Shown piece by piece: positions 10,160 through 36,144 of a stretch of DNA of 64,000 bases. Source of the DNA: Myxococcota bacterium (GTDB taxonomy: Bacteria; Myxococcota_A; UBA796; CAJQPC01); contig JAZAMN010000059.1 in NCBI GenBank assembly GCA_036229005.1, positions 64,001 through 128,000 of the forward strand. Reading direction: 5' to 3'. The notes under the pieces are model-generated. The model saw nothing but the letters and a program-made list of their open reading frames with translations, had not been told where the DNA came from and searched no databases. The translations under genes were made by a program, and so were the position numbers. Within the stretch, counting starts at the first letter, position 1. Each line of letters begins with the position of its first letter.

Positions 10160-10305
10160 GGGTATCGGGTATCGGGTATCGGGTATCAGTCCGCCGGCCG
10201 GGGCGGGTTCGCTACCACCAGCGTCCCACTGGACGCCTGCACCCAGCGTCTATCCCCTGATACCTGACTCCTGATACCTGATACCGGCGCCTGATACCTG
10301 ATACC
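10160..10305. repeat. Inverted heptamer tandem arrays: GGGTATC x4 and CCTGATA-type x6
   Basis: GGGTATC at 10160,10167,10174,10181; CCTGATA at 10256,10270,10277,10290,10297 plus variant CCTGACT at 10263; lies between convergent genes. Confidence 0.85.
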
Positions 10306-10316
10306 CGCCCCAGGCC

Positions 10317-10826
10317 TCAGCTCTCCGCCAGGTACAGCTCCAGCGGCACAACACAGAAGCCCCACCGCGCCGCATCCCGCCAAGGAATCCGGTACACCGG
10401 CAGGCCGCCCTCGCCCGTGAGCGTGTCAAAGCTCAGCCCGCAGCTCGCCCGGCCCCGCTGCTTGCCGCAGCTCCGCACGCCGTCGGAGAGCTCGCCCTCG
10501 GGGACGGTGGACAGGGGCCTGCAGAGCTCGTCGGCCGGCACCTCGAAGAGGGTGACCTTGTAGTAGCGGCGCGCCCGCCAGCCCCCTCGCCTGCCCGACA
10601 TGCCCAGGGCCTGGAGCACCCGGGTCTGATCGGCGGCGTGGGCCTCGCTCCAGGCGCTGAGGTCCTCTGCCAGCACGACGGTGATCTCCTGGTTGTTGCG
10701 CGCGCTGCGGAGCACCGGACTCACCCAGGCCACCTGCACGGTGTCGTCGGGGACCGGCAGGGTGGGACACACCGCCCCCGAAGGCTCGGCGGCCCCCAGG
10801 GCGACAGCGCTGAGCAGCGCAAGCAT
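10317..10826 (-). CDS. Hypothetical exported protein
   Basis: MLALLSAVALGA signal peptide; TGATG overlap with nagZ; several Cys. Confidence 0.6.
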   Translation of the reverse strand: MLALLSAVALGAAEPSGAVCPTLPVPDDTVQVAWVSPVLRSARNNQEITVVLAEDLSAWSEAHAADQTRVLQALGMSGRRGGWRARRYYKVTLFEVPADELCRPLSTVPEGELSDGVRSCGKQRGRASCGLSFDTLTGEGGLPVYRIPWRDAARWGFCVVPLELYLAES

Positions 10827-26919: not shown

Positions 26920-28290
26920 TCAGGGGGCGGCCAGGGGGAGCTCCAGCACAAAGAGCGCGCCGGGGCCGTCGATGGGCATCAGGCGTACATCTCCGCCGTG
27001 CTCCCGCGCCATGCGGCGGGCCAGACTCAGGCCCAGATCCCGCGCGGAGGCCGGCTCAAAGAGCTGCTCGCCCATCGCCTCGGGGATCCGGGGGCCGAAG
27101 TCCCGCACAAGGCAGTGGGCGCGGTCCCCGATCCGGCGGGTGTCGACCTCGATCCGCCCCGCCCGCTCCGCGCGGAGGACCGCGTTGTGGAGCAGCTTCC
27201 CGACGATCTGGTGGGCCACGGACTCCGTGACGGCGACCTGCGCCTCGCCAAGCCCCAGGGACACCTGCAGCTCAAGCTCGGGGCTGATGATCTCCATGCT
27301 GCGGAGCATCACCTGGCAGAGGTGGTCCAGCGAGCTCGTGCCCTGCGCCGCCCAGGGGCCGTCCAGCCGAAGCGCCTCGCGGGTGATCGTGCTGGCCTGC
27401 AGGAGCGCCACGGACATCTCCCGCAGCTCCTCGCGCTCGCCGTGCTCCTGGCTGAGCAGCTCCAGGTTGCCCCCCAACACCGCGAGCTGGTTCCGCATCT
27501 GCATGAGCGCCCCGCGATAGCCCGTCGCCTTGAGCGCCTGGTCATGCAGCTCCCGGACCACAGGCCCCTGCTCGGGGGCGGCGACGCTGCGCTCGGCCTC
27601 ACACACCGCCCCCCGGAGCGCACCCTCCCGCTCGCCGGCCACGAGCCCCATCTTCAAGCTGCGCTTGCGCCCGTCGAAACAGGTCAGCTCGACGACGCTG
27701 GTGGAGCCGGCGTTGTGTTGCTCACGGACCAGCGCGCTCCATTGGCCGTCGGGCAGGCGGCTGGCCAGGCTCGCGCGTCCGGCGGGCCAGCCCCCGAGCG
27801 CCGCGGAGAAGGCCTCGTTCCAGGTGAGCAGGTTCCCCTGCTGGTCCGCCTCGAAGAGCCCCACGGGGATGTCCGCGAAGAGGCGTCGGTAGCGCTCCTC
27901 CGCCACGCGCAGGGCGTCCTCCCGCCGCTGCGACTCCATGGCGCGCTCGATGATGTTGGCCATCGAGCCCGCCTCCCAGGGCTTGCGCATGTAGTGCCAG
28001 ACGCGCCCCTGCTGGATCGCCCGCACCACGTCCCCCGGCTCGGAGAAGTAGCCGGTGAGCAGGATGCGGATGGCCCGGGGCTGCTCCTCGGCGAACCAGG
28101 CCAGGAAGTCCACGCCGGTCTCCCGCGGGAGGCGGTCGTCGCTGATCACGACGTCGATGCGGCGCTCGGCCACGATCTCCCGCGCCAGCTCGGCCGAGCC
28201 GGCCTTGAACACCTGGAAGTCATCCTCGAAGGTGGCTTCCAGACTCTCCAGGACCAACTCGTCGTCGTCGACGACCAGCAAGACAGGCAT
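26920..28290 (-). CDS. Hybrid REC-PAS-histidine kinase-like protein with degenerate H-box
   Basis: LVVDDD..VISD..LLTG..KPW receiver; RYRRLF..PVG PAS; LLHNA, DFGP, LGLS ATPase boxes. Confidence 0.82.
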   Translation of the reverse strand: MPVLLVVDDDELVLESLEATFEDDFQVFKAGSAELAREIVAERRIDVVISDDRLPRETGVDFLAWFAEEQPRAIRILLTGYFSEPGDVVRAIQQGRVWHYMRKPWEAGSMANIIERAMESQRREDALRVAEERYRRLFADIPVGLFEADQQGNLLTWNEAFSAALGGWPAGRASLASRLPDGQWSALVREQHNAGSTSVVELTCFDGRKRSLKMGLVAGEREGALRGAVCEAERSVAAPEQGPVVRELHDQALKATGYRGALMQMRNQLAVLGGNLELLSQEHGEREELREMSVALLQASTITREALRLDGPWAAQGTSSLDHLCQVMLRSMEIISPELELQVSLGLGEAQVAVTESVAHQIVGKLLHNAVLRAERAGRIEVDTRRIGDRAHCLVRDFGPRIPEAMGEQLFEPASARDLGLSLARRMAREHGGDVRLMPIDGPGALFVLELPLAAP

Positions 28291-28387: not shown

Positions 28388-29410
28388 GTGCACACCCTCG
28401 CAGGCCCCCTCGCCGCCTTGCTGAACGAGCGCGCCACCCGGCAGGCACAGGCCACGCTCTCGCTGGAGCTGGAGGAGGGGCTGTCGGGCGCGGACCGCCT
28501 TCGGCTGAGCTGGAGGGCCCACCCCCAGGGCCTGGATGGGCTCCGGGGCTCGCTATGGACCGATGCCCGCCAGCGAGGTGCGGCTGCCCTGAACGCACTC
28601 CCCGCCCCCATGGAGCAGCAACGCTCAGGCCTGCTGGGCCACCCCGAGCTGCACGGCGAGCTCTTCATCGCTCTTGTCTTTCACTTGCAGGAACCGCCGC
28701 CGGAGCGGGTCCCCACCGCACAGCTCGCGGGGCGAACGCACGACCGCTACTACCGTGAGCTCCCGGACATGCCGGGCGACCTGGACAGCGCGGCCGCCAT
28801 CCTCCTGAGCGGGCTGCCCCAGGTGGCTCACCTGCGCGAGCAGGCCCGGACCCGCCTGGAGTGGGCCCTGGCGCAGAGCCCCGTGCCCGTCTGGGAGTCT
28901 GGCGGCTGGTATGGCCCACACTGCCCCGCTGTCACCGGCCGGGCGCTGATGGCCGCGGGTGCGCTGGGCCTGAGCGTCCCCGACGCCGCCATCGCCCCCC
29001 TGCGCGCCATCCAGGGCTGGGCCCGCTCCCCCCACTACCCGGACGCCGTCGTGGCCAGCGCGCTGGTGCTGCGGGGTCTGGAGGCCGTTGGCCAGGACCA
29101 CCCGGGGCTCCGTCGACTGCTCGCGACCGCGCCCTGCGGGAGCTGGTCTCCCCTCGCCGTCGCCGCCAGCGTCGAGGCCGTGGGGCCCGCGCTCTCCCCG
29201 CGCCGCCGCGAGCAGCTCCTGGTCCGTCTGCTGCGCACCCAGCGCTTTGACGGCGCCTGGGGGCCCAGCCCCTGGTTCATGGTCCCCGCGCCCCAGGGAG
29301 GGATGCAGCCCTTTGGGGACGCCGCGTACACCACCGCGGCGGTCCTCAGTGCGCTGAGAGCACTCCAGCCTGCTCCTTGGCGGGACCTGCCAGGGGCAGC
29401 AGCACGCTGA
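28388..29410 (+). CDS. Class II terpene cyclase / prenyltransferase (alpha-alpha barrel)-like protein
   Basis: ELPDMPGDLDSAA (DxDD-like), LLRTQRFDGAW (QW motif), YTTAAVLSAL; start uncertain (28289 or 28388). Confidence 0.6.
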   Translation: MHTLAGPLAALLNERATRQAQATLSLELEEGLSGADRLRLSWRAHPQGLDGLRGSLWTDARQRGAAALNALPAPMEQQRSGLLGHPELHGELFIALVFHLQEPPPERVPTAQLAGRTHDRYYRELPDMPGDLDSAAAILLSGLPQVAHLREQARTRLEWALAQSPVPVWESGGWYGPHCPAVTGRALMAAGALGLSVPDAAIAPLRAIQGWARSPHYPDAVVASALVLRGLEAVGQDHPGLRRLLATAPCGSWSPLAVAASVEAVGPALSPRRREQLLVRLLRTQRFDGAWGPSPWFMVPAPQGGMQPFGDAAYTTAAVLSALRALQPAPWRDLPGAAAR

Positions 29411-31730
29411 AGCGCGCGCCCCCGTCCGGGGGATCGTCCTGCCAGATCCGCCCGCCGTGCAGCGTCACGAAGCTCGCGCACAGCGACAGCCCCAGCCCGG
29501 ACGCGTTGCTCTCGTCCCCGGTGGTCTCGAAGGGGTCGAACAGGGTGCGCTGCAGCTCCGGGGGGATGCCCGGGCCCTGGTCCTGGACCACCAGCAGCAG
29601 GTCGTCGCCCTTCTCCTGGAAGCGCAGGGTGATGACCCCCTCCGCCGGGCTCATCTTCACCGCGTTGTGGAGCAGGTTGTAGAGCACCTGGTGCACCAGC
29701 ACGGGGTAGCCGTTGAGGCGCGGCGGGTCCCCCTCCACCACCAGCTTGAGGCCCTTGCGGTCCATGCGCTTCTGCAGCAGGCGCTGGGAGATGGCCAGCC
29801 CCTCCATGGGGTCGAAGCGCTGGAGGCGGTCGATGCCCGGCCGCGAGAACACCTGCAGGTTGCGGATGATCTCGCTGGCGCGCCGCACGCCGTCCTGGGT
29901 GAGCCGGCCGAACTTCATGGCCCGCTCGACCTTCCCCTTCTCCAGCGCGGTCATGAGCTGATCCATGCTGGAGAGGGCCACCCCCAGCGGCGAGGAGAGC
30001 TCGTGCCCGATGCCCGCCGACAGGGTGCTCAGCGCGGCGACCCGCTCCCAGCGAAAGGAGCGCAGCCGCGCCTCGTCGCGCTCCGCCGTGCGGCGCTCCA
30101 CCAACACCTCGAGCCCGCGGTTCAGGTCCTGGATGGTCTCGAGCGCCATCCGGTGCGAGGCGGTGGCTCCCATCGCCGCGGAGGCCGACTGCAGCGCCTG
30201 CAGATCCCGGGGCATGGGCAGAGGTCCGGGGCCCTTCCCGACGACCACGGCGCCGACCAGCCCCTGCGAGGTGCCCACCGGGATCAGCAGCTCGCCCTGG
30301 TGAGCGTCCAGCCACGCCTGGGCGGCGTCCTCCCGCTGGCTGTCGGAGAGCACCGGAGCCGTCGTGGGCATGCCCTCAAGGGGGAGGTCCTCAGACGCCG
30401 GATCCGAGCGGAGGATGAGGTGAACGGGGCGACTCCCGGTCACGGCCCGCACCCTGGACAAGAAGGCCTCCCGCGCAGCCTCCAGGCTGTCCATGCCAGC
30501 GAGGTCATGGGGGAGCCGCTCCAGGGCCTCCCGGGCCGCCTGCTGTTCACGCCCCAGGGCCTGCGGGACCATGCCCAGCAGCAGACCAGCCGCCGGGATC
30601 AGCAGGAAGAGGGGGACCGAGATCCGCTCGGTGGCCGCGCCGTAGGCGATCACCAGCAGGGCCGCGGCGCCCACCGCACCGGACCACTGCAGCACGCTGC
30701 GCAGCAGGAGCAGCCGGACGCGGCTGGCGGCCAGGCCCAGGCCGATGGAGATGGGGAGGAAGGCCAGCGCGGTCCCGACCATCAGTACGTCGGGGGGCAG
30801 GGGCTGGCCCAGCCAGTTGGGCGCGGAGAAGATCAGGGTGACGAACACCGTCGCCCCGAAGCCCCAGCCGATCCAGGCCGCCTGCAGGCGCTGCACCACC
30901 TGGCGGCTCTTGATGGCCCCGTAGATCAGCGCGCCCACCGCCCCAAAGGTGGGGATGAAGGTGGAGACCTGGATGACACCCGAGTAGGTGAACAGGTCCA
31001 GCAGGATGGCGACCGGGGTCAGCGCCCAGCCCACGACCAGCATCCAGCGCACGCGGCGCTCCCGCACCAGGGGCTGGGGGAAGCTCAGGGCGAAGGCCAG
31101 CAGATGCAGCGTCCCGCCAAAGGCGCCGACCCCATTGATCAGGTGCTGGAACACGGAGACCCAGGTCGGCGCGAACACACCCCGCTGGGCGACGTAGAAG
31201 AGCGGGATGAGGTTCAAGGAGGCGCCGACGGCGACCAGCATCAGATCGCGCCCCAGCTTCCCGCCGTGTCGGCGCCCCGCCCAGAGCCCGCTGGCGGCCA
31301 CCAGCAGCGCAGCGAAGAGCGCGGCTGCGAAGCCCTTGCCGCCGCGTAGGGAGCTGCGCGGGGTGAGGAAGAGCTGCTGGCCATCCGCCAGGCGCACGGA
31401 GACGGAGTCGCTCTGGGCAGCGTTCAGCGCCTGCTGCAGCGCCACCCAGTCCAGGAGCGCGCCCATGCCGAAGCTGAGCGCGGGGTCGTGCACGAACTCG
31501 TCCGCGACGGAGACCCCAGCGATCTCCACCACGCACTGCTCTTGGACGACGAACTCGCAGTGCTGTCCGTCGCGGGGGGCCTCCAGCCCAAGACTGCGAC
31601 CTTGGGCCAGGCCCAGGAGCGAGAACAGGCTCGCCAGGAGAACCAAGAAGCCGGCTCCCCAGTAGCTCCAGGCGAGCCTCCTCTCAGCTTGCCATGTCGG
31701 GTCGGATTCCGGACTCGGCGCGCTCTTCAT
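29346..31730 (-). CDS. Multi-TM sensor histidine kinase with GAF-like domain
   Basis: About 8-9 TM segments; LLIPV..LVG.VVVG GAF-like; GIGHELSSPL H-box, NLLHNA, DQGPG, GLGL. Confidence 0.9.
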   Translation of the reverse strand: MKSAPSPESDPTWQAERRLAWSYWGAGFLVLLASLFSLLGLAQGRSLGLEAPRDGQHCEFVVQEQCVVEIAGVSVADEFVHDPALSFGMGALLDWVALQQALNAAQSDSVSVRLADGQQLFLTPRSSLRGGKGFAAALFAALLVAASGLWAGRRHGGKLGRDLMLVAVGASLNLIPLFYVAQRGVFAPTWVSVFQHLINGVGAFGGTLHLLAFALSFPQPLVRERRVRWMLVVGWALTPVAILLDLFTYSGVIQVSTFIPTFGAVGALIYGAIKSRQVVQRLQAAWIGWGFGATVFVTLIFSAPNWLGQPLPPDVLMVGTALAFLPISIGLGLAASRVRLLLLRSVLQWSGAVGAAALLVIAYGAATERISVPLFLLIPAAGLLLGMVPQALGREQQAAREALERLPHDLAGMDSLEAAREAFLSRVRAVTGSRPVHLILRSDPASEDLPLEGMPTTAPVLSDSQREDAAQAWLDAHQGELLIPVGTSQGLVGAVVVGKGPGPLPMPRDLQALQSASAAMGATASHRMALETIQDLNRGLEVLVERRTAERDEARLRSFRWERVAALSTLSAGIGHELSSPLGVALSSMDQLMTALEKGKVERAMKFGRLTQDGVRRASEIIRNLQVFSRPGIDRLQRFDPMEGLAISQRLLQKRMDRKGLKLVVEGDPPRLNGYPVLVHQVLYNLLHNAVKMSPAEGVITLRFQEKGDDLLLVVQDQGPGIPPELQRTLFDPFETTGDESNASGLGLSLCASFVTLHGGRIWQDDPPDGGARFSVLLPLAGPAKEQAGVLSAH

Positions 31731-31932
31731 CAAAAGACTCGACCAGGGCTTCGGCGTCCACGGTCTCCAGAGGGAAGCCCCAGCTATCAGCGAGCTGGAC
31801 CAGGGCCTCTTCGCGACCGGGGGCGTCTGCGTTCAGGACAAAGCATGCCACGGCGAAGTGGTTCTCATGTCCGGGGGTCTTGCAGTAGTCGACAAAGGCC
31901 AGGGCCTTGTCGGAGGGGTTCTCGGGCAGCAT
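31684..31932 (-). CDS. Small 82-aa protein (RiPP precursor or PqqD/RRE-like)
   Basis: AGAGGAG Shine-Dalgarno 6 nt before ATG; lies between the rSAM fusion and the HK, overlapping the HK start. Confidence 0.75.
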   Translation of the reverse strand: MLPENPSDKALAFVDYCKTPGHENHFAVACFVLNADAPGREEALVQLADSWGFPLETVDAEALVESFDEERAESGIRPDMAS

Positions 31933-31952
31933 TGTGTACTCCTCTCAGGGGT

Positions 31953-33899
31953 TCACGGGGTTGAAGACGCGCGGGCTCCGCGGCCCGCCAGCAGCGAGAG
32001 CGCCTGCTGACAGCGACCGTCGTTCCCACCAAGTTCGAGCCCTTCGCCGACCACGACGGCCTGGCAGCCGCCGCAGATGTCCTGGTGCTCACAGGCGGCG
32101 CAGCCCAGGTGTCCGCGGGCGCGCAGCGCGGCGGCTGTGGGGTGGCGCCGGGCGCGCTCGACGAAGCCGCGGACGCTGTCCAGCTCCACCCGCCCCAGCG
32201 GGGCGCGGAAGGGGTGACAGGGGCTCAAGCTGCGGTCGGCCTGCACGCAGATCCGCGCGCCGCCGGCCTCACACTGCCAGAGGCTCTCCCGGGGCAGGCC
32301 CAGACCCTCCAGCAGCGGGTTGATCACGGGGTAGTCAGCCACCACCGTGCTCAGTCCGCGCTTCTCCAGCGCGGCGACCTGCTCGGCGCAGCGCAGCAGA
32401 TCCGCGGTGCTCAGGCCCCGTCCAGCGGCGGGCGTCATGCCCGGCTTGGTGAACAGCGGCCACAGGGTCAGCGGCCGCCACTGGCCCATGGACTCAGCCA
32501 GGTACTGGCCCCAGGCGGCCACGCCGTAGTCCAGCAGCTCGCCGGTCAGGATGGTCGCCGGGGTGGCCAGCACGCCGTGCTCAGGCGCGATCGCCAGGGC
32601 GTGCAGCGACTTGGCGGTCTGCGTGCGACCGCGCACGCGCTCGTGGACCCCCGGGGGCCCATCGATGCTCACCATCAGGTGGACCTTTGCGCGCAGCGCC
32701 CCCAGCCTGGCCATCTCCGCGTGGTCCAGCAGCCCGCCGTTGGTGTTGATCAGCACCTGCGCGATGCCCAGCGCGTCCGCGCGCTCCAGGACCTCCCAGA
32801 TGTGCGGGTAGAAGAAGGGCTCGCCGCCGGTCAGGTGTAGCACGGTGCGGTGTCCGACGGCCTCCTCCAGGAGCGCGAACACCAGCTCCAGAGGCAGCTC
32901 GTCCAGATCGCTCAGGTCGGGCTCCTGCGCGAACACAAAGCAGTCCGGGCAGCGCAGGTTGCAGCGCCGGGTGAGCTCGATGTCCAGGACCAGGCGCTCC
33001 CCACCAAAGGCCGCCCGCGCGCCCAGCCGCAGCTTGCGACGCCCCAGGGCCTTGCGGCGCGCCTGGATGTGCGTCTGCAGCAGAGGCCCCAGCTCGAACG
33101 CAGCCGCCCGCACCTCGCAGGCACCCAGAGCGCTGTCGATGGCGTGCAAGTGGGTTCGAAGCGGTCCGGTCTTCCATGCCCGGCGCTCCGCAGCCCCCAG
33201 CTCCTCGACCCCATGACGACTCGGGTCCAGGCCCAGGATGGCCAGGTACGACGAGCGCTGTCCTTCAGCCAGATCCCGCGCCCCACCCAGCAGGTCGTTG
33301 GTGAGCTGCAGGGGCACGCCCAGCGCCTCCACCAGCTCAAACAGCGGCTCCACAAGCTCCGGCCGGCCGGCCTCCCGCGCCAGGGACACCAGCGGCAGCG
33401 CCATGGGCAGGTACTTGGCGCCCTGCAGCGCGGTGGCCTCTTCGGTCCAGGGCGCAGCGCTCGTGCGCAGGGTCAGGTCCCGGAGGGCGGCGTCCACAAA
33501 GGCCCCCATCCCCCGCGTCCAGTCCTGGGGCTCCAGCGACATCCACCCCAGCGCCGTCCCGGTCAGGAGCTGCTGGAGGTAGGCCCCGCGCGGCTCCGCG
33601 CCCTCGTCCACCAGGTCGTCCTGGATGCGCACCGCCAGATACAGGGCGAGCATCGCCTGCTGCGCGCGCTGAACGGACGCCTCGGGGAGTTCCAGCCCCT
33701 GCCCCAGCCAGGCCAGCAGCACAAAGGCCGGGGAGCCCTCCGGCCCGACAAACAGCCCCTCCAGGCCGCCCATGGGCTCCAGGCGCGCCCTCAGCGCATC
33801 GAGCTGCTCCATCAACAGACGCTGCGGGAGGGGGGGGAGGCTGCGCAGCGCGGCCTCAAATCGGGCCACACCGCCCTGCAGACCGTGGCTCTCGGACAT
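31953..33899 (-). CDS. Fusion: class I isoprenoid synthase/prenyltransferase + radical SAM/SPASM domain (648 aa)
   Basis: IQDDLVD and QLTNDLLG; CNLRCPDC, TGGEP, NTNG, VSIDG; SPASM CEAG..PC..CAAC.....CGGC..C; TGATG overlap with the S8 gene fixes the start. Confidence 0.88.
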   Translation of the reverse strand: MSESHGLQGGVARFEAALRSLPPLPQRLLMEQLDALRARLEPMGGLEGLFVGPEGSPAFVLLAWLGQGLELPEASVQRAQQAMLALYLAVRIQDDLVDEGAEPRGAYLQQLLTGTALGWMSLEPQDWTRGMGAFVDAALRDLTLRTSAAPWTEEATALQGAKYLPMALPLVSLAREAGRPELVEPLFELVEALGVPLQLTNDLLGGARDLAEGQRSSYLAILGLDPSRHGVEELGAAERRAWKTGPLRTHLHAIDSALGACEVRAAAFELGPLLQTHIQARRKALGRRKLRLGARAAFGGERLVLDIELTRRCNLRCPDCFVFAQEPDLSDLDELPLELVFALLEEAVGHRTVLHLTGGEPFFYPHIWEVLERADALGIAQVLINTNGGLLDHAEMARLGALRAKVHLMVSIDGPPGVHERVRGRTQTAKSLHALAIAPEHGVLATPATILTGELLDYGVAAWGQYLAESMGQWRPLTLWPLFTKPGMTPAAGRGLSTADLLRCAEQVAALEKRGLSTVVADYPVINPLLEGLGLPRESLWQCEAGGARICVQADRSLSPCHPFRAPLGRVELDSVRGFVERARRHPTAAALRARGHLGCAACEHQDICGGCQAVVVGEGLELGGNDGRCQQALSLLAGRGARASSTP

Positions 33900-34792
33900 C
33901 ACGCCACCGCCGGCGCAGACGAGGACACCGAGAAGCTGCGCGCGAGATCCAGCGCGCCCGAGCCCAGCCGCTCCCGCAGCCCCGCCACACCCAGCTTGGG
34001 GGAGTGCTGCAGCAACAGGGCAGCGGACCCCGCCACCAACGGCGCCGCGAAGCTGGTCCCGCGCTCCCACCCGTATCGCCGGGGACAGAGCGCCACCCGC
34101 ACGCCGCTCCCCGGGGCCAACAGCTCGGGCTTCACCGAGCGCCTGTCCTCCCAGCAGAGCAGCCCCTCCGGGCTCTCCGGGCCGGGCTCTCCCCCGCGGT
34201 CCAGGCTGCCGACGCCCAGCGCCTCGGGGTAGTTCCCCGGGCTGCCCGTCTCGCCCTGGCGTCCGCCGTTGCCGATGCTGGCGACCACCAGGATGCCGCT
34301 CCGCTCGGCTTCCTGCACAAGATCGCGGATCCACGCGTCCTGACCACGCCGCTCCAGGGTCATCAGGACCAGGTCCACCTGACCGTGCTCCAGCAACCAC
34401 TTCAGGCCAGCCCGGACGTCCTCGGGCTCAGCCCGGGAGACCCGTCGATGGCGCCCCATCCGGTAGACATCGGCGACCACCAGCGTGGCCTCGCGCGCGA
34501 GCCCCTGGTTGTCCCCCACCAGCAGGCTGGCCACGGCGGTCCCGTGGTCGGGGATCGGCGCCTGACCGGGAGAGATGCGGTGCACCTGGATGCGGCCGGA
34601 GGCGACCGCCCCACTCAGCTCGGGGTGCTCCAGGTCCACGCCACCATCCACCAGCCCGATGCGGACGCCGTCACCGCGTAGCCCGAGCGACCACGCGACC
34701 TGTGCACCGATGGCGTGCAGGTGCCAGGCAGGGTCCAGCGCTTGTACGGGCGTTGCCCGCGGCGCACGGGCAGCCTGAATGCTCGATGACAT
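33899..34792 (-). CDS. S8 (subtilisin-family) serine peptidase with no evident signal or pro-domain
   Basis: LVDGG (Asp), HGTAVA (His), SIGN (oxyanion Asn), GTSFAAP (Ser). Confidence 0.92.
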   Translation of the reverse strand: MSSSIQAARAPRATPVQALDPAWHLHAIGAQVAWSLGLRGDGVRIGLVDGGVDLEHPELSGAVASGRIQVHRISPGQAPIPDHGTAVASLLVGDNQGLAREATLVVADVYRMGRHRRVSRAEPEDVRAGLKWLLEHGQVDLVLMTLERRGQDAWIRDLVQEAERSGILVVASIGNGGRQGETGSPGNYPEALGVGSLDRGGEPGPESPEGLLCWEDRRSVKPELLAPGSGVRVALCPRRYGWERGTSFAAPLVAGSAALLLQHSPKLGVAGLRERLGSGALDLARSFSVSSSAPAVA

Positions 34793-34861
34793 GGTGGGTC
34801 CGGGATGACAGGCCCCCCCAAGGACAGCGCGCTCCAACGCGGTGGAGGCGTATACACCGTC

Positions 34862-34885
34862 TTGACCCTCAGGTCCACACGTCAA
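34862..34885. promoter_or_regulatory. TTGAC-N14-GTCAA inverted repeat upstream of the S8/rSAM operon
   Basis: TTGAC 34862-66, GTCAA 34881-85; 70 bp upstream of the S8 ATG. Confidence 0.3.
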
Positions 34886-34942
34886 CCTCCCAATATAGCC
34901 TTGATGATCGGGGTCGCTCCTACTTCGGTATTACATCCCATT

Positions 34943-35761
34943 TCATTCCTCCCCCGAGACCTGCCTCGCGACCCACCCGTGGACCGTTTCTGGAGCAAGT
35001 GCAAGCAGATAGAGCAGCAGCATCGACGCCGAGAAGGTGGCGACTGGAAGACTTACATAGATCCCCGCGTGCAAGATCACCCCAAATCCAAGGATCCATT
35101 TGCGGGCAGATGGGAGCCAGATGCCTAGGGCAATGGCGTACTCCAGCAGAATGACCGCTACGCTCAAAGCGACCATCAACCAATGGAATCCGGGCCACGC
35201 CGGGTAGTCCGAGCCCTGGTACAGGACCATGAAATACTGCTCCATCCGCTCCCCCGAGGCGTGCCCCCACTCGGTCTTGGACCAAGCTCCAAAGAGGTAG
35301 ATCGCGCTGAGCTGCACCTTGATCAAGTGGCGTCCCCAGTCCAGTCCCCGCTCCCGGGGAGCGTCGCCGCGCCGCAGCGCCAAGGCCCGATCCAGCGAGA
35401 AGCTCCCTCCGCAGGGGGTCAGCGCGAGCAGCACGGGCAGCGTGAACAGCAGGTAGGTGTGGTGGTGGGTGTAGGGCTCCACCCCCATCTGGTGGCCCAG
35501 GCCGTAGTACAGAAAGAGCCCCAGCGCGCCCGTGATCGCGGTGCTCAGGCGGGAGAAGAGCCCCAGGAACATGGCGGCCGTGGCCGCATACCAGAGCAGC
35601 GAGAGGCCGATGCGCCAGGGCTGGATGTGCTGGTAGAGGACAAAGTCGCTGCCCAGCCGGGACCAGAGCAGCAGTGGCCACCCGATACGGACCAGCGAGA
35701 CCGAGCGCGTCGAGGCCTCCTTGGAGAAGAAGGCCACGAGCCGGGCTCTCAGGGCGTGCAC
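34943..35761 (-). CDS. HTTM-domain membrane protein
   Basis: SLVRIG, YTHHHTYL, FSLD, QLSAIYLFGAWSK..W..GE, LHAGI. Confidence 0.78.
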   Translation of the reverse strand: MHALRARLVAFFSKEASTRSVSLVRIGWPLLLWSRLGSDFVLYQHIQPWRIGLSLLWYAATAAMFLGLFSRLSTAITGALGLFLYYGLGHQMGVEPYTHHHTYLLFTLPVLLALTPCGGSFSLDRALALRRGDAPRERGLDWGRHLIKVQLSAIYLFGAWSKTEWGHASGERMEQYFMVLYQGSDYPAWPGFHWLMVALSVAVILLEYAIALGIWLPSARKWILGFGVILHAGIYVSLPVATFSASMLLLYLLALAPETVHGWVARQVSGEE

Positions 35762-36144
35762 AGGTTCTCCTCGGGGTCACCCTGGGGCTTCCACCCGCGA
35801 ATCCCGCCGCAGCGGCAGTCCATGGTGAGCTCCTGAACCCCGAGCGCGCGACAGATCTCCCTCCCCTGCCGCCTGGCCTGGTCCACGTCCCGCAGCATGC
35901 GCACCTTCCGGGGCGCCTCCCAGCGGTGCTCGTAGCCCAGGGTCTCCAGCCGCTGCACCGGCGTCCGCTGAGGGCCCGCCAGATAGCGCACGTCACAGAT
36001 GTCCGTGCCGTAGCCGATGAACATCAGCCAGCGCTTCACGTAGGGCACGCGCAGGCCGAGCACCTGGGTGGCGAAGGGCCCCCCCAGCATCCACAAGGTC
36101 AGGGAGGCGAAGAGCCCCGCTCGAAGCCAGATCTTCCACCGCAT
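35749..36144 (-). CDS. HTTM-partner protein
   Basis: N-terminal TM then KRWLMF (WxMF); overlaps the HTTM gene. Confidence 0.55.
   Translation of the reverse strand: MRWKIWLRAGLFASLTLWMLGGPFATQVLGLRVPYVKRWLMFIGYGTDICDVRYLAGPQRTPVQRLETLGYEHRWEAPRKVRMLRDVDQARRQGREICRALGVQELTMDCRCGGIRGWKPQGDPEENLCTP

Follow-up and report, generated by a model that had tools for sequence, protein, structure and literature searches.

A predicted trans-prenyltransferase-like domain fused to a radical SAM/SPASM domain, next to a putative precursor peptide gene, in a Myxococcota bacterium

We analyzed a stretch of 64,000 nt from a Myxococcota bacterium (GCA_036229005.1, contig JAZAMN010000059.1, positions 64,001 to 128,000), hereafter called the window. 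On its minus strand, a gene of 648 codons (31953..33899; product P0001) encodes a predicted prenyltransferase domain resembling isoprenyl diphosphate synthases of the trans type (trans-IDS), which we call the N-domain, followed by a radical SAM/SPASM domain. The genes of this strand come in the order S8 peptidase, fusion gene, an 82-codon gene that may encode a precursor peptide, histidine kinase and, farther on, a receiver-PAS-kinase hybrid. The fusion had been singled out in an earlier sequence-only reading, which described one continuous 648-residue frame with isoprenoid synthase motifs in its N-half and radical SAM and SPASM motifs in its C-half, and supposed that the two halves share a substrate.

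Translation of 31953-33899 gives 648 residues and a stop codon, in agreement with the frame described before; a longer frame of 815 codons corresponds to a start at an upstream GTG that lies within the preceding gene. The start codon of the fusion gene (ATG at 33899) shares letters with the stop codon (TGA) of the S8 peptidase gene, in the string TGATG. Since such an overlap is a usual sign of translational coupling, we regard the peptidase gene as coupled to the fusion gene. The junction between the halves, where two separate genes had been considered, is spanned by contigs from metagenome assemblies of two different studies (X2 and X3), each covering 31600-34900 unbroken and without indels. 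These contigs differ from the window by 26 (X2) and 33 (X3) substitutions over this interval. The substitutions listed within the gene (17 in X2, 12 in X3) change 3 and 2 residues, respectively, are mostly synonymous and create no stop codon. The sequencing runs containing the stretch are labelled seawater or marine metagenome; no RNA dataset is found among those listed, and contigs cannot show transcripts.

The same architecture is found elsewhere. A word-indexed protein search retrieved 61 proteins at E<=1e-3 among 7992 candidates scored, and 36 database homologs (P0003-P0038) are fused likewise, with 41-63% identity over 74-100% of the query and, for most, a length of 628-707 residues. An alignment of 32 full-length sequences has as invariant positions Y87, R91, D94, D95, D98, K162, Q198, N201, D202 and D209 in the N-domain, together with the three radical SAM cysteines, the GGE motif and six SPASM cysteines in the C-half. 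The AlphaFold model of the full-length P0001 has a mean predicted local distance difference test score (pLDDT) of 91.2 and a predicted template modelling score (pTM) of 0.88; it forms one compact body, in which a long helix (residues 273-298) leads directly into the first strand of the barrel. Because other contigs span it without indels or stops and homologs are identically fused, the 648-codon frame is one real gene in this organism.

The N-domain (residues 1-295; 33015..33899, minus strand) was also modelled alone with AlphaFold from an 18-sequence alignment. The model is all-helical (pLDDT 94.4, pTM 0.91) and is predicted to adopt the isoprenoid-synthase alpha fold. A Foldseek search against the PDB returned 19 matches at E<=0.001, with probability 1.00, template modelling (TM) scores up to 0.70 and 10-19% identity. 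Among the matches listed, nearly every top one is a trans-prenyl diphosphate synthase or a prenyltransferase domain with this fold; geranylgeranyl (GGPP), farnesyl (FPP) and octaprenyl diphosphate (OPP) synthases stand at the top. A second structural search, with VIA-align over 48,161 representative chains and independent of Foldseek, gave as best match the C45 isoprenyl diphosphate synthase 9imq (Z 21.6, root-mean-square deviation (rmsd) of 3.0 A over 267 of the 295 residues). Next in the ranking are GGPP, OPP and heptaprenyl diphosphate (HepPP) synthases (Z 21-18). MoeN5 (Z 18.0) and Ord1 (Z 17.5), both prenyltransferases of the same fold that use acceptors other than isopentenyl diphosphate (IPP), are also matched. 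Class I terpene cyclases reach Z 11-14 and the squalene synthase HpnC 11.2, against 17-21 for trans-IDS enzymes, and the Z values stand well above the helical-bundle background quoted for the tool. The isoprenoid-synthase fold proposed earlier for this half is thus supported at the level of a predicted model, which superposes on trans-prenyl diphosphate synthases.

A sequence-profile search of the N-domain against the PDB was sub-significant. Its best match was the GGPP synthase 3lk5 (E 0.043), and eight of the ten matches listed were enzymes of the isoprenoid-synthase fold. The alignment to 3lk5 pairs QLTNDLLG...DL..G..S with FQLRDDLLG...DI.EGKRT, and the loop after the second motif rich in aspartate (SARM) is shorter in the N-domain. 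Residues 1-300 have no Pfam match, and no Pfam or NCBIfam family scored above threshold for the N-half, the sole match in the family scans being SQS_PSY at E 0.009, under its cutoff. The Pfam family polyprenyl_synt (PF00348) matched neither P0001 at E<=0.1 nor any of 109 members of the domain family (see below) at E<=0.01, and a ComQ-specific model did not appear in the Pfam and NCBIfam scans.

Two motifs stand out in the N-domain, and both had been spotted before. The first motif rich in aspartate (FARM), D94-D95-x-x-D98 (33606..33620, minus strand), lies within RxQDDxxD, is invariant in 32/32 sequences and includes the IQDDLVD of the sequence-only reading (residues 92-98). The domain alignment of 18 sequences likewise shows no variation at D94 and D98, and has Asn for D95 in one locus alone (L016). 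The QLTNDLLG (residues 198-205, 33285-33308) opens a pseudo-SARM, Q198-L-T-N201-D202-L-L-G205-x-x-x-D209 (33273..33308, minus strand), whose Q198, N201, D202 and D209 are invariant in both the 32- and the 18-sequence alignments. Every aligned sequence has NDxxG (NDLLG) in place of the canonical DDxxD. The stretch N201-D202-x-x-G205-x-x-x-D209 resembles the NSE/DTE triad of class I terpene cyclases, (N/D)Dxx(S/T)xxxE, but has Gly and Asp. Canonical synthases also have a Gln upstream of the SARM, and Q198 is therefore not discriminating.

The closest parallel to this pair of motifs is in peptide prenyltransferases. As described in PMC5331326, ComQ keeps the FARM, its pseudo-SARM must read NDxxx or GDxxx, and an Asn-to-Asp change in this motif drastically decreased the geranylation of Trp. 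In the account given by PMC13290415, the trans-IDS-like peptide prenyltransferases are ComQ, PalQ and the P domain of ChrPC, all those characterised act on Trp, and Ord1, which farnesylates free Trp, is treated as a related enzyme. The same source describes a conserved Gln directly upstream of the SARM as common to ComQ, PalQ, ChrPC-P and Ord1; Q198 is its invariant counterpart. Thus, the model and motifs suggest that the N-domain descends from trans-IDS enzymes, with the FARM kept and the SARM replaced by NDxxG. Because the second motif is a pseudo-SARM of the ComQ type (NDxxx) and not DDxxD, the domain is probably a prenyl transferase to an acceptor other than IPP, and not a chain-elongating synthase or a cyclase. 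Judged by its residues, the pair FARM and NDxxG matches the class of ComQ-type peptide prenyltransferases. The second motif had been likened to trans-prenyltransferases, ComQ and terpene synthases together. The ComQ part of this comparison holds; the motif is not the DDxxD of the synthases, and the fold is nearer to trans-IDS enzymes than to cyclases.

The N-domain belongs to a large family. Its profile, searched over 1.84 billion representatives (clusters at 50% identity), matched 1217 clusters at E<=1e-3, 452 at E<=1e-10 and 69 at E<=1e-30. Among the best 150 clusters, most proteins are stand-alone domains of around 300-340 residues and around 20 exceed 600. Of these, 109 mostly stand-alone members were aligned, and D94, D98, D202 and D209 are each conserved in 90% of them or more; a Pfam scan of the 109 found weak matches to SQS_PSY in five and to Terpene_syn_C_2 in four. 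Several members carry other domains: geranylgeranyl-reductase-type flavoproteins in P0078 and P0085, SnoaL_2 in P0084, a methyltransferase with a squalene-hopene-cyclase-like domain in P0158, and a cyclase-like domain alone in P0103 (30.5 bits, cutoff 26.1). Since the partners of the geranylgeranyl-reductase and cyclase types act on prenyl chains, we argue that the N-domain binds a prenyl group. An example in its genomic context is L016:457-2601 (plus strand, 41% G+C, labelled Thermodesulfobacteriota), a fusion of 714 residues between a geranylgeranyl-reductase-family flavoprotein (TIGR02032, 206 bits, cutoff 158.8) and an N-domain. It is followed by a separate radical SAM/SPASM gene, a 95-codon open reading frame (ORF) ending in FSGVC and a PAS histidine kinase. 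An odd partner is found in P0172 (442 residues), in which the N-domain is preceded by a match (33.8 bits, cutoff 27) to AEP-TOTE, a primase-like domain known from a conflict system.

The C-half belongs to the radical SAM/SPASM family. Hallmarks of the radical SAM superfamily are a CxxxCxxC cluster motif and a GGE motif that binds SAM, set in a partial TIM barrel. Pfam PF04055 (Radical_SAM) matched residues 307-444 (32568..32981, minus strand) with 58.7 bits (cutoff 29.5), and the model alternates strands and helices over residues 302-481. The cysteines C313-x3-C317-x2-C320 lie at 32940-32963, exactly where CNLRCPDC (residues 313-320) had been reported, and the GGEP is found in TGGEP at residues 357-361 (GGE, 358-360). 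SPASM domains have a seven-cysteine motif for two auxiliary 4Fe-4S clusters, Cx9-15Gx4C ... Cx2Cx5Cx3C ... C. The SPASM region of P0001 (32010..32273, minus strand) has the full set, as anticipated: C543, G556-x4-C561, C600-x2-C603-x5-C609-x2-C612 and C630. The first spacing is C543-x12-G556-x4-C561 and the last one is x2 where the motif has x3. These positions are invariant in the 32 aligned homologs, except C630, present in at least 90%. PF13186 did not match P0001 at E<=0.1; it is precomputed on four full-length homologs. In NCBIfam, P0001 matched solely radical SAM/SPASM families, all far under their cutoffs (best ScmE, 62.7 bits against 400). Foldseek with the full model gave the SPASM enzymes SkfB, CteB, SuiB and anSME as the first 11 matches, then ChlB and PqqE, with the lipid-modifying GDGT-MAS at rank 28. 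Given these leading matches, the closest solved relatives of the C-half are peptide or protein maturases. Another fusion partner of this radical SAM lineage is seen in P0040-P0043 (460-479 residues), where SnoaL_2 is joined to a radical SAM domain 39-41% identical to the C-half.

We then compared the arrangement of the two halves across relatives. In a scan with one genome per species, 137 of 279 candidate stretches encode a relative; the best 80 were kept, and the 19 loci where the match extends beyond the radical SAM core are called L001-L019. The halves form one open frame in seven loci (L001-L007) and two abutting genes in different frames, N-domain first, in seven others (L008, L009, L011, L012, L013, L014, L016). 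In three (L015, L017, L019) the radical SAM gene comes first and the N-domain gene lies 0-1.1 kb downstream. L010 is cut at a contig start, and in L018 the radical SAM half alone was found. Fusion is thus not universal in the family (7/19 loci in one frame, 10/19 split). The occurrence of all three arrangements, fused, adjacent and reordered, speaks strongly for a task that both halves share. The distribution of the fusion is patchy: among 41 genomes of the same order, the full-length fusion is present in four (the window's own, two of the three others of the genus and one of another family), and the remaining matches are generic radical SAM proteins. The third-position G+C of the fusion, peptidase and small genes is 0.76-0.85, against 0.88-0.98 for most neighbouring genes.

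Next to the fusion gene lies the 82-codon gene (31684..31932, minus strand), whose product, a putative precursor peptide, has a leader-like helix, LADSWGFPLETVDAEALVESF, and the tail GIRPDMAS. The sequence GAGAGGAG is placed 7 nt ahead of its ATG and makes a strong ribosome-binding site. Compared with its orthologs, the gene differs at codon positions 1, 2 and 3 by 7, 10 and 26 changes (L001) and by 7, 9 and 22 changes (L002). Because of the strong ribosome-binding site and the divergence biased towards third positions, we consider that the gene is translated and constrained. The histidine kinase gene begins, in another frame, within its last 47-50 nt (31684-31733), and a second GAGGAGG directly follows the stop codon of the 82-codon gene.

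Similar small ORFs adjoin the enzyme genes in the window and in 15 of the 19 loci, plus a partial one in L003 at a contig end. A profile built from 12 of them recovered those of the window and 13 loci, and those of L015 and L019 were found by position. They follow the pattern hydrophobic-x-x-L-A-x-x-W/H/Y-G-x-x-L-x-x-x-D/E-A, then a short variable tail such as GIRPDMAS in the window and SGNPGEFT, GNPEIAWT, KPDDPSVKVC, SGPC or FSGVC elsewhere. Some tails are Cys repeats (...ACTCTCTCT and ...FCSFCSFCSFC). Ser, Thr or Cys is the last residue of all 16 complete small ORFs, that of the window among them, compared with 25 of the 172 likely genes of the same DNA; the chance of this is around 6e-10 if 11 sequence groups are taken as independent, although kin are not fully so. 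The pattern of the helix is, we presume, reminiscent of Nif11 leaders, for which the Pfam scan gave no confirmation. An assignment to Nif11 was dropped, its sole match, in 1/12 small ORFs, having an E of 0.16. A search of the ESM Atlas returned unnamed clusters only. Small genes with a leader and a variable core beside a maturase gene are what defines a cluster for peptides that are ribosomally synthesized and then modified post-translationally (RiPPs), and this is the arrangement found here; the small peptides would be the substrates.

Three loci add variants of this arrangement. In L019, a 138-codon ORF (10181-10597, plus strand) missed by the small-ORF profile comes right after the N-domain gene and has a repeat end, ...GGEAFCSFCSFCSFC. 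Two Polyangiaceae-labelled loci carry precursor-like ORFs (L015:6960-7179 and L017:7680-7897, plus strand) ending in ...GSGSDPSACTCTCTCT and ...GQGSDPAACTCTCTCT. Each of these ORFs has a methyltransferase gene on one side and the radical SAM gene on the other; a SnoaL_2 protein and the N-domain gene come next. Such a cassette is a sub-type of its own.

The other neighbours are a peptidase, two kinases and a cyclase-like protein. The coupled gene upstream (33899..34885, minus strand) encodes a subtilisin-like S8 serine peptidase (Pfam Peptidase_S8, 99.4 bits), the predicted leader peptidase. Downstream, the membrane histidine kinase (29346..31730, minus strand, 795 residues; Pfam HisKA and HATPase_c), whose start overlaps the end of the 82-codon gene, has by hydropathy scan one N-terminal hydrophobic segment, a loop of around 90 residues and around six further segments up to residue 389, followed by HisKA and HATPase_c. 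In L002, L004, L005, L008, L009, L011 and L013 the enzyme genes are followed by a kinase homolog with the membrane part, and the homologs of L010 and L012 match from query residues 265-280 on. The hybrid with receiver, PAS and histidine kinase domains (26920..28290, minus strand, start inferred at ATG 28290; Pfam Response_reg, PAS_8 and HATPase_c) has homologs in several loci.

Between the two kinase genes, on the plus strand, a gene at 28388..29410 (start inferred) encodes a protein of around 340 residues that resembles MstE and squalene-hopene cyclases and would be class II terpene cyclase-like. It has no Pfam match of its own. It shares 33% identity (E 2e-15) with P0103, an N-domain-cyclase fusion, in the C-terminal domain of the latter, and its homolog in L010 matches SQHop_cyclase_C with 33.7 bits (cutoff 26.1). 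A profile of four such sequences matched in the PDB squalene-hopene cyclase (3.8e-7) and, over most of its length, the monodomain class II cyclase MstE (0.006).

Farther out, an HTTM-domain membrane protein of 272 residues is encoded just upstream of the S8 peptidase gene (34943-35761, minus strand; 37.7 bits, cutoff 27.7, with a weak SdpB-family match). It was rejected as a member of the cluster: tblastn found no homolog in L001 or L002, and a different gene takes its place in L002. A 131-codon ORF without a family (35749-36144) is likewise not at this position in L001 or L002. Elsewhere in the window, the segment 46001-48000 is an outlier in composition, with a G+C of 0.775 and a GC skew of -0.195, against around 0.70 and -0.05 in the rest.

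How does this locus relate to known systems? The gene order in Bacillus is comQ-comX-comP, which the order of enzyme, small ORF and multi-pass histidine kinase (around seven hydrophobic segments) in the window recalls by analogy. As far as ComQ, PalQ and ChrPC-P are described in PMC13290415, PMC5331326 and PMC10853753, the likeness would extend to the predicted alpha fold, the FARM DDxxD, the NDxxx motif, the upstream Gln and the adjacent small peptide gene. In contrast with these enzymes, the N-domain matches no curated model and has a radical SAM/SPASM domain as its fusion partner or neighbour. Trp is not a conserved residue of the putative substrates, whose last residue is Ser, Thr or Cys in every case. 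Quorum-sensing modules of the ComQXPA type combine a modifying enzyme, a pheromone precursor, a multi-pass sensor kinase and a DNA-binding response regulator within one locus; the window has no DNA-binding regulator of the ComA type. Unlike the Bacillota with ComQ, the host has 70% G+C and occurs in marine metagenomes, with relatives labelled Myxococcota or Deltaproteobacteria.

A second comparison is with ChrPC and NctPC, the prenyltransferase-cyclase (PC) maturases of terpene-RiPP hybrids first reported in 2024 (Hubrich et al., Chem 2024, as cited in PMC13290415), whose MstE-like C domains cyclise the prenyl group on RiPPs according to PMC13290415. These too combine a peptide prenyltransferase with an MstE-like class II cyclase, a pairing paralleled by the N-domain-cyclase fusions P0103 and P0158 and by the separate cyclase-like protein of the window. 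Here, however, the fusion partner of the predicted prenyltransferase is a radical SAM/SPASM domain, and a separate, convergent gene encodes the cyclase-like protein. With SkfB, CteB, SuiB, anSME and PqqE, the best structural matches of the C-half, P0001 shares CxxxCxxC, GGE and the seven-cysteine SPASM region; it differs from them in NCBIfam equivalog scores far under the cutoffs, the lack of a RiPP recognition element (RRE), a last spacing of Cx2C and the prenyltransferase-like N-terminal partner. With GGPPS, FPPS, OPPS and Rv0562, the N-domain shares the fold (Z 21.6-17, rmsd of around 3 A over around 265 residues), the FARM and a Q-x-x-(D/N)-D context, whereas identity is 12-19%, the SARM is lost, the loop after it is shorter and polyprenyl_synt is not matched. 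In our literature search, no paper turned up that describes a fusion of a prenyltransferase with a radical SAM domain; the genome-mining data of 2024 on terpene-RiPPs may already include such clusters. The enzyme would be a new variant among the trans-IDS-like RiPP prenyltransferases, and the locus a predicted new variant within a type of pathway first described in 2024.

Taken together, the reading we lean towards, as somewhat better than an even bet, is that P0001 is a bifunctional maturase that would both prenylate and radical-modify the adjacent ribosomal peptide of 82 residues, which is possibly a signal. The peptide would dock on the enzyme by its leader-like helix, and the N-domain would bind a prenyl diphosphate through D94, D95, D98 and Mg2+ and ionise it. 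A nucleophile in the short tail at the C-terminus, perhaps the Ser, Thr or Cys that is always the last residue, would then receive the prenyl cation. Next, the radical SAM/SPASM domain would abstract a hydrogen atom, and in doing so cross-link the tail, oxidise it or work on the prenyl group instead. Finally, the MstE-like protein would cyclise the prenyl chain and the coupled S8 peptidase would cut off the leader. By analogy with ComP, which senses ComX, the adjacent membrane histidine kinase may sense the product.

Several observations weigh against this proposal. In L006, L007 and L018 no small ORF was seen. Trp is not conserved in the small ORFs, being present in the leader-like helix of 7 of the 16 complete ones and in the tail in L005 alone; the acceptor is possibly another residue, or there may be no peptide acceptor. 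Nif11 (PF07862) matched 1/12 small ORFs, at E 0.16, and the NCBIfam scan of the small ORFs gave nothing relevant and no known leader family. In P0001, Pfam and NCBIfam detected no peptide-binding domain of the RRE type. The peptidase adjoins the enzyme in L001 and L002 only (2/19 loci, 65% identity), and MstE-like homologs are at the same place in five of the 19 (L002, L004, L005, L008, L010). The window's cluster has no DNA-binding response regulator, its sole receiver protein being the REC-PAS-kinase hybrid, and the adjacent kinase may only regulate the cluster. Lastly, partners such as SnoaL_2, methyltransferases, geranylgeranyl reductases and cyclases are equally typical of small-molecule terpenoid pathways.

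The last point leads to the alternative that survives best, although we still hold it to be unlikely: a pathway to a free terpenoid, close to what the sequence-only reading had in mind, in which the N-domain handles a prenyl diphosphate or small isoprenoid, the radical SAM domain modifies the same lipid and the small ORFs are unrelated regulators or chaperones. The fusions of N-domains with geranylgeranyl-reductase-family proteins and the SnoaL_2, methyltransferase and cyclase-like partners would fit it. So would the NCBIfam match to the tetraether lipid synthase Tes (3.7e-11, far under its cutoff), the rank of GDGT-MAS in Foldseek, and the weak SQS_PSY (5/109) and Terpene_syn_C_2 (4/109) matches in the family. 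It sits poorly with the leader-like small ORFs of the window and 15/19 loci, their variable tails and constant Ser/Thr/Cys end, with peptide or protein maturases as the first 11 structural matches of the C-half, with a second motif of the peptide-prenyltransferase type (NDxxx, not DDxxD) and with the coupled S8 peptidase. As for the shared substrate supposed by the sequence-only reading, the adjacent small peptide is more likely than a free isoprenoid.

It is quite improbable that the N-domain is a catalytically silent scaffold, replacing an RRE by holding the leader or dimerising the enzyme, with all chemistry coming from the radical SAM domain. The absence of a detected RRE-like domain and the loss of the canonical SARM point in this direction, as does the greater length, relative to the C-half alone, of RiPP radical SAM maturases with solved structures such as SuiB and CteB. 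Against it, the metal-binding Asp residues stay invariant even where the forms are split or distant, as do Q198, N201, D202, D209, K162 and R91. Moreover, 90% or more of the 109 mostly stand-alone members retain D94, D98, D202 and D209, and fusions to partners acting on prenyl chains argue for a prenyl ligand.

We give very little credit to the view that the domain is a canonical chain-elongating synthase of prenyl diphosphates and does no more than provide another enzyme with the donor: in structure it is matched best by GGPP, FPP and long-chain synthases, and a KxxP/GxxAG-like stretch aligns to the synthase core, but every sequence has NDxxG in place of the DDxxD of the SARM, the following loop is shorter than in 3lk5, and polyprenyl_synt matches neither P0001 nor the 109 members at the thresholds above. 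In addition, the genome has one other weak match to the N-domain profile, in a 289-codon frame on another contig (E 8e-4). An assembly artefact or frameshift joining two genes, which the abutting halves in different frames of seven related loci might have suggested, is practically dismissed by the two contigs from other studies that span the gene without indels or stops, the seven loci and 36 database proteins fused likewise in other assemblies, and the single compact body of the full-length model (pTM 0.88).

A more far-reaching version of the bifunctional maturase reading, which we hold to be speculative and rather unlikely, is a ComX-style signalling system made of new parts in a marine Myxococcota-like lineage. 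A ComQ-like domain would prenylate a Ser/Thr/Cys tail instead of Trp, cyclisation of the lipid would fall to an MstE-like protein, the radical SAM domain would stitch lipid and peptide together and the kinase would read out the product. If true, it would be the first non-Trp peptide prenylation by a trans-IDS-like enzyme and the first case of a prenylated peptide as the target of a radical SAM enzyme.

Peptide prenylation by enzymes of the isoprenoid-synthase fold is known from very few systems (ComQ, PalQ, ChrPC), all on Trp. The N-domain family described here is large (1217 clusters) and unannotated, with no Pfam or NCBIfam model, and it is tied repeatedly to a radical SAM/SPASM maturase, by fusion, adjacency and reordering. 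If the adjacent peptide is the substrate, P0001 would be a compact catalyst of two reactions, lipidating and cross-linking peptides, possibly on a new acceptor residue. The conserved sensor kinase makes these loci candidates for lipopeptide signalling outside Bacillota.

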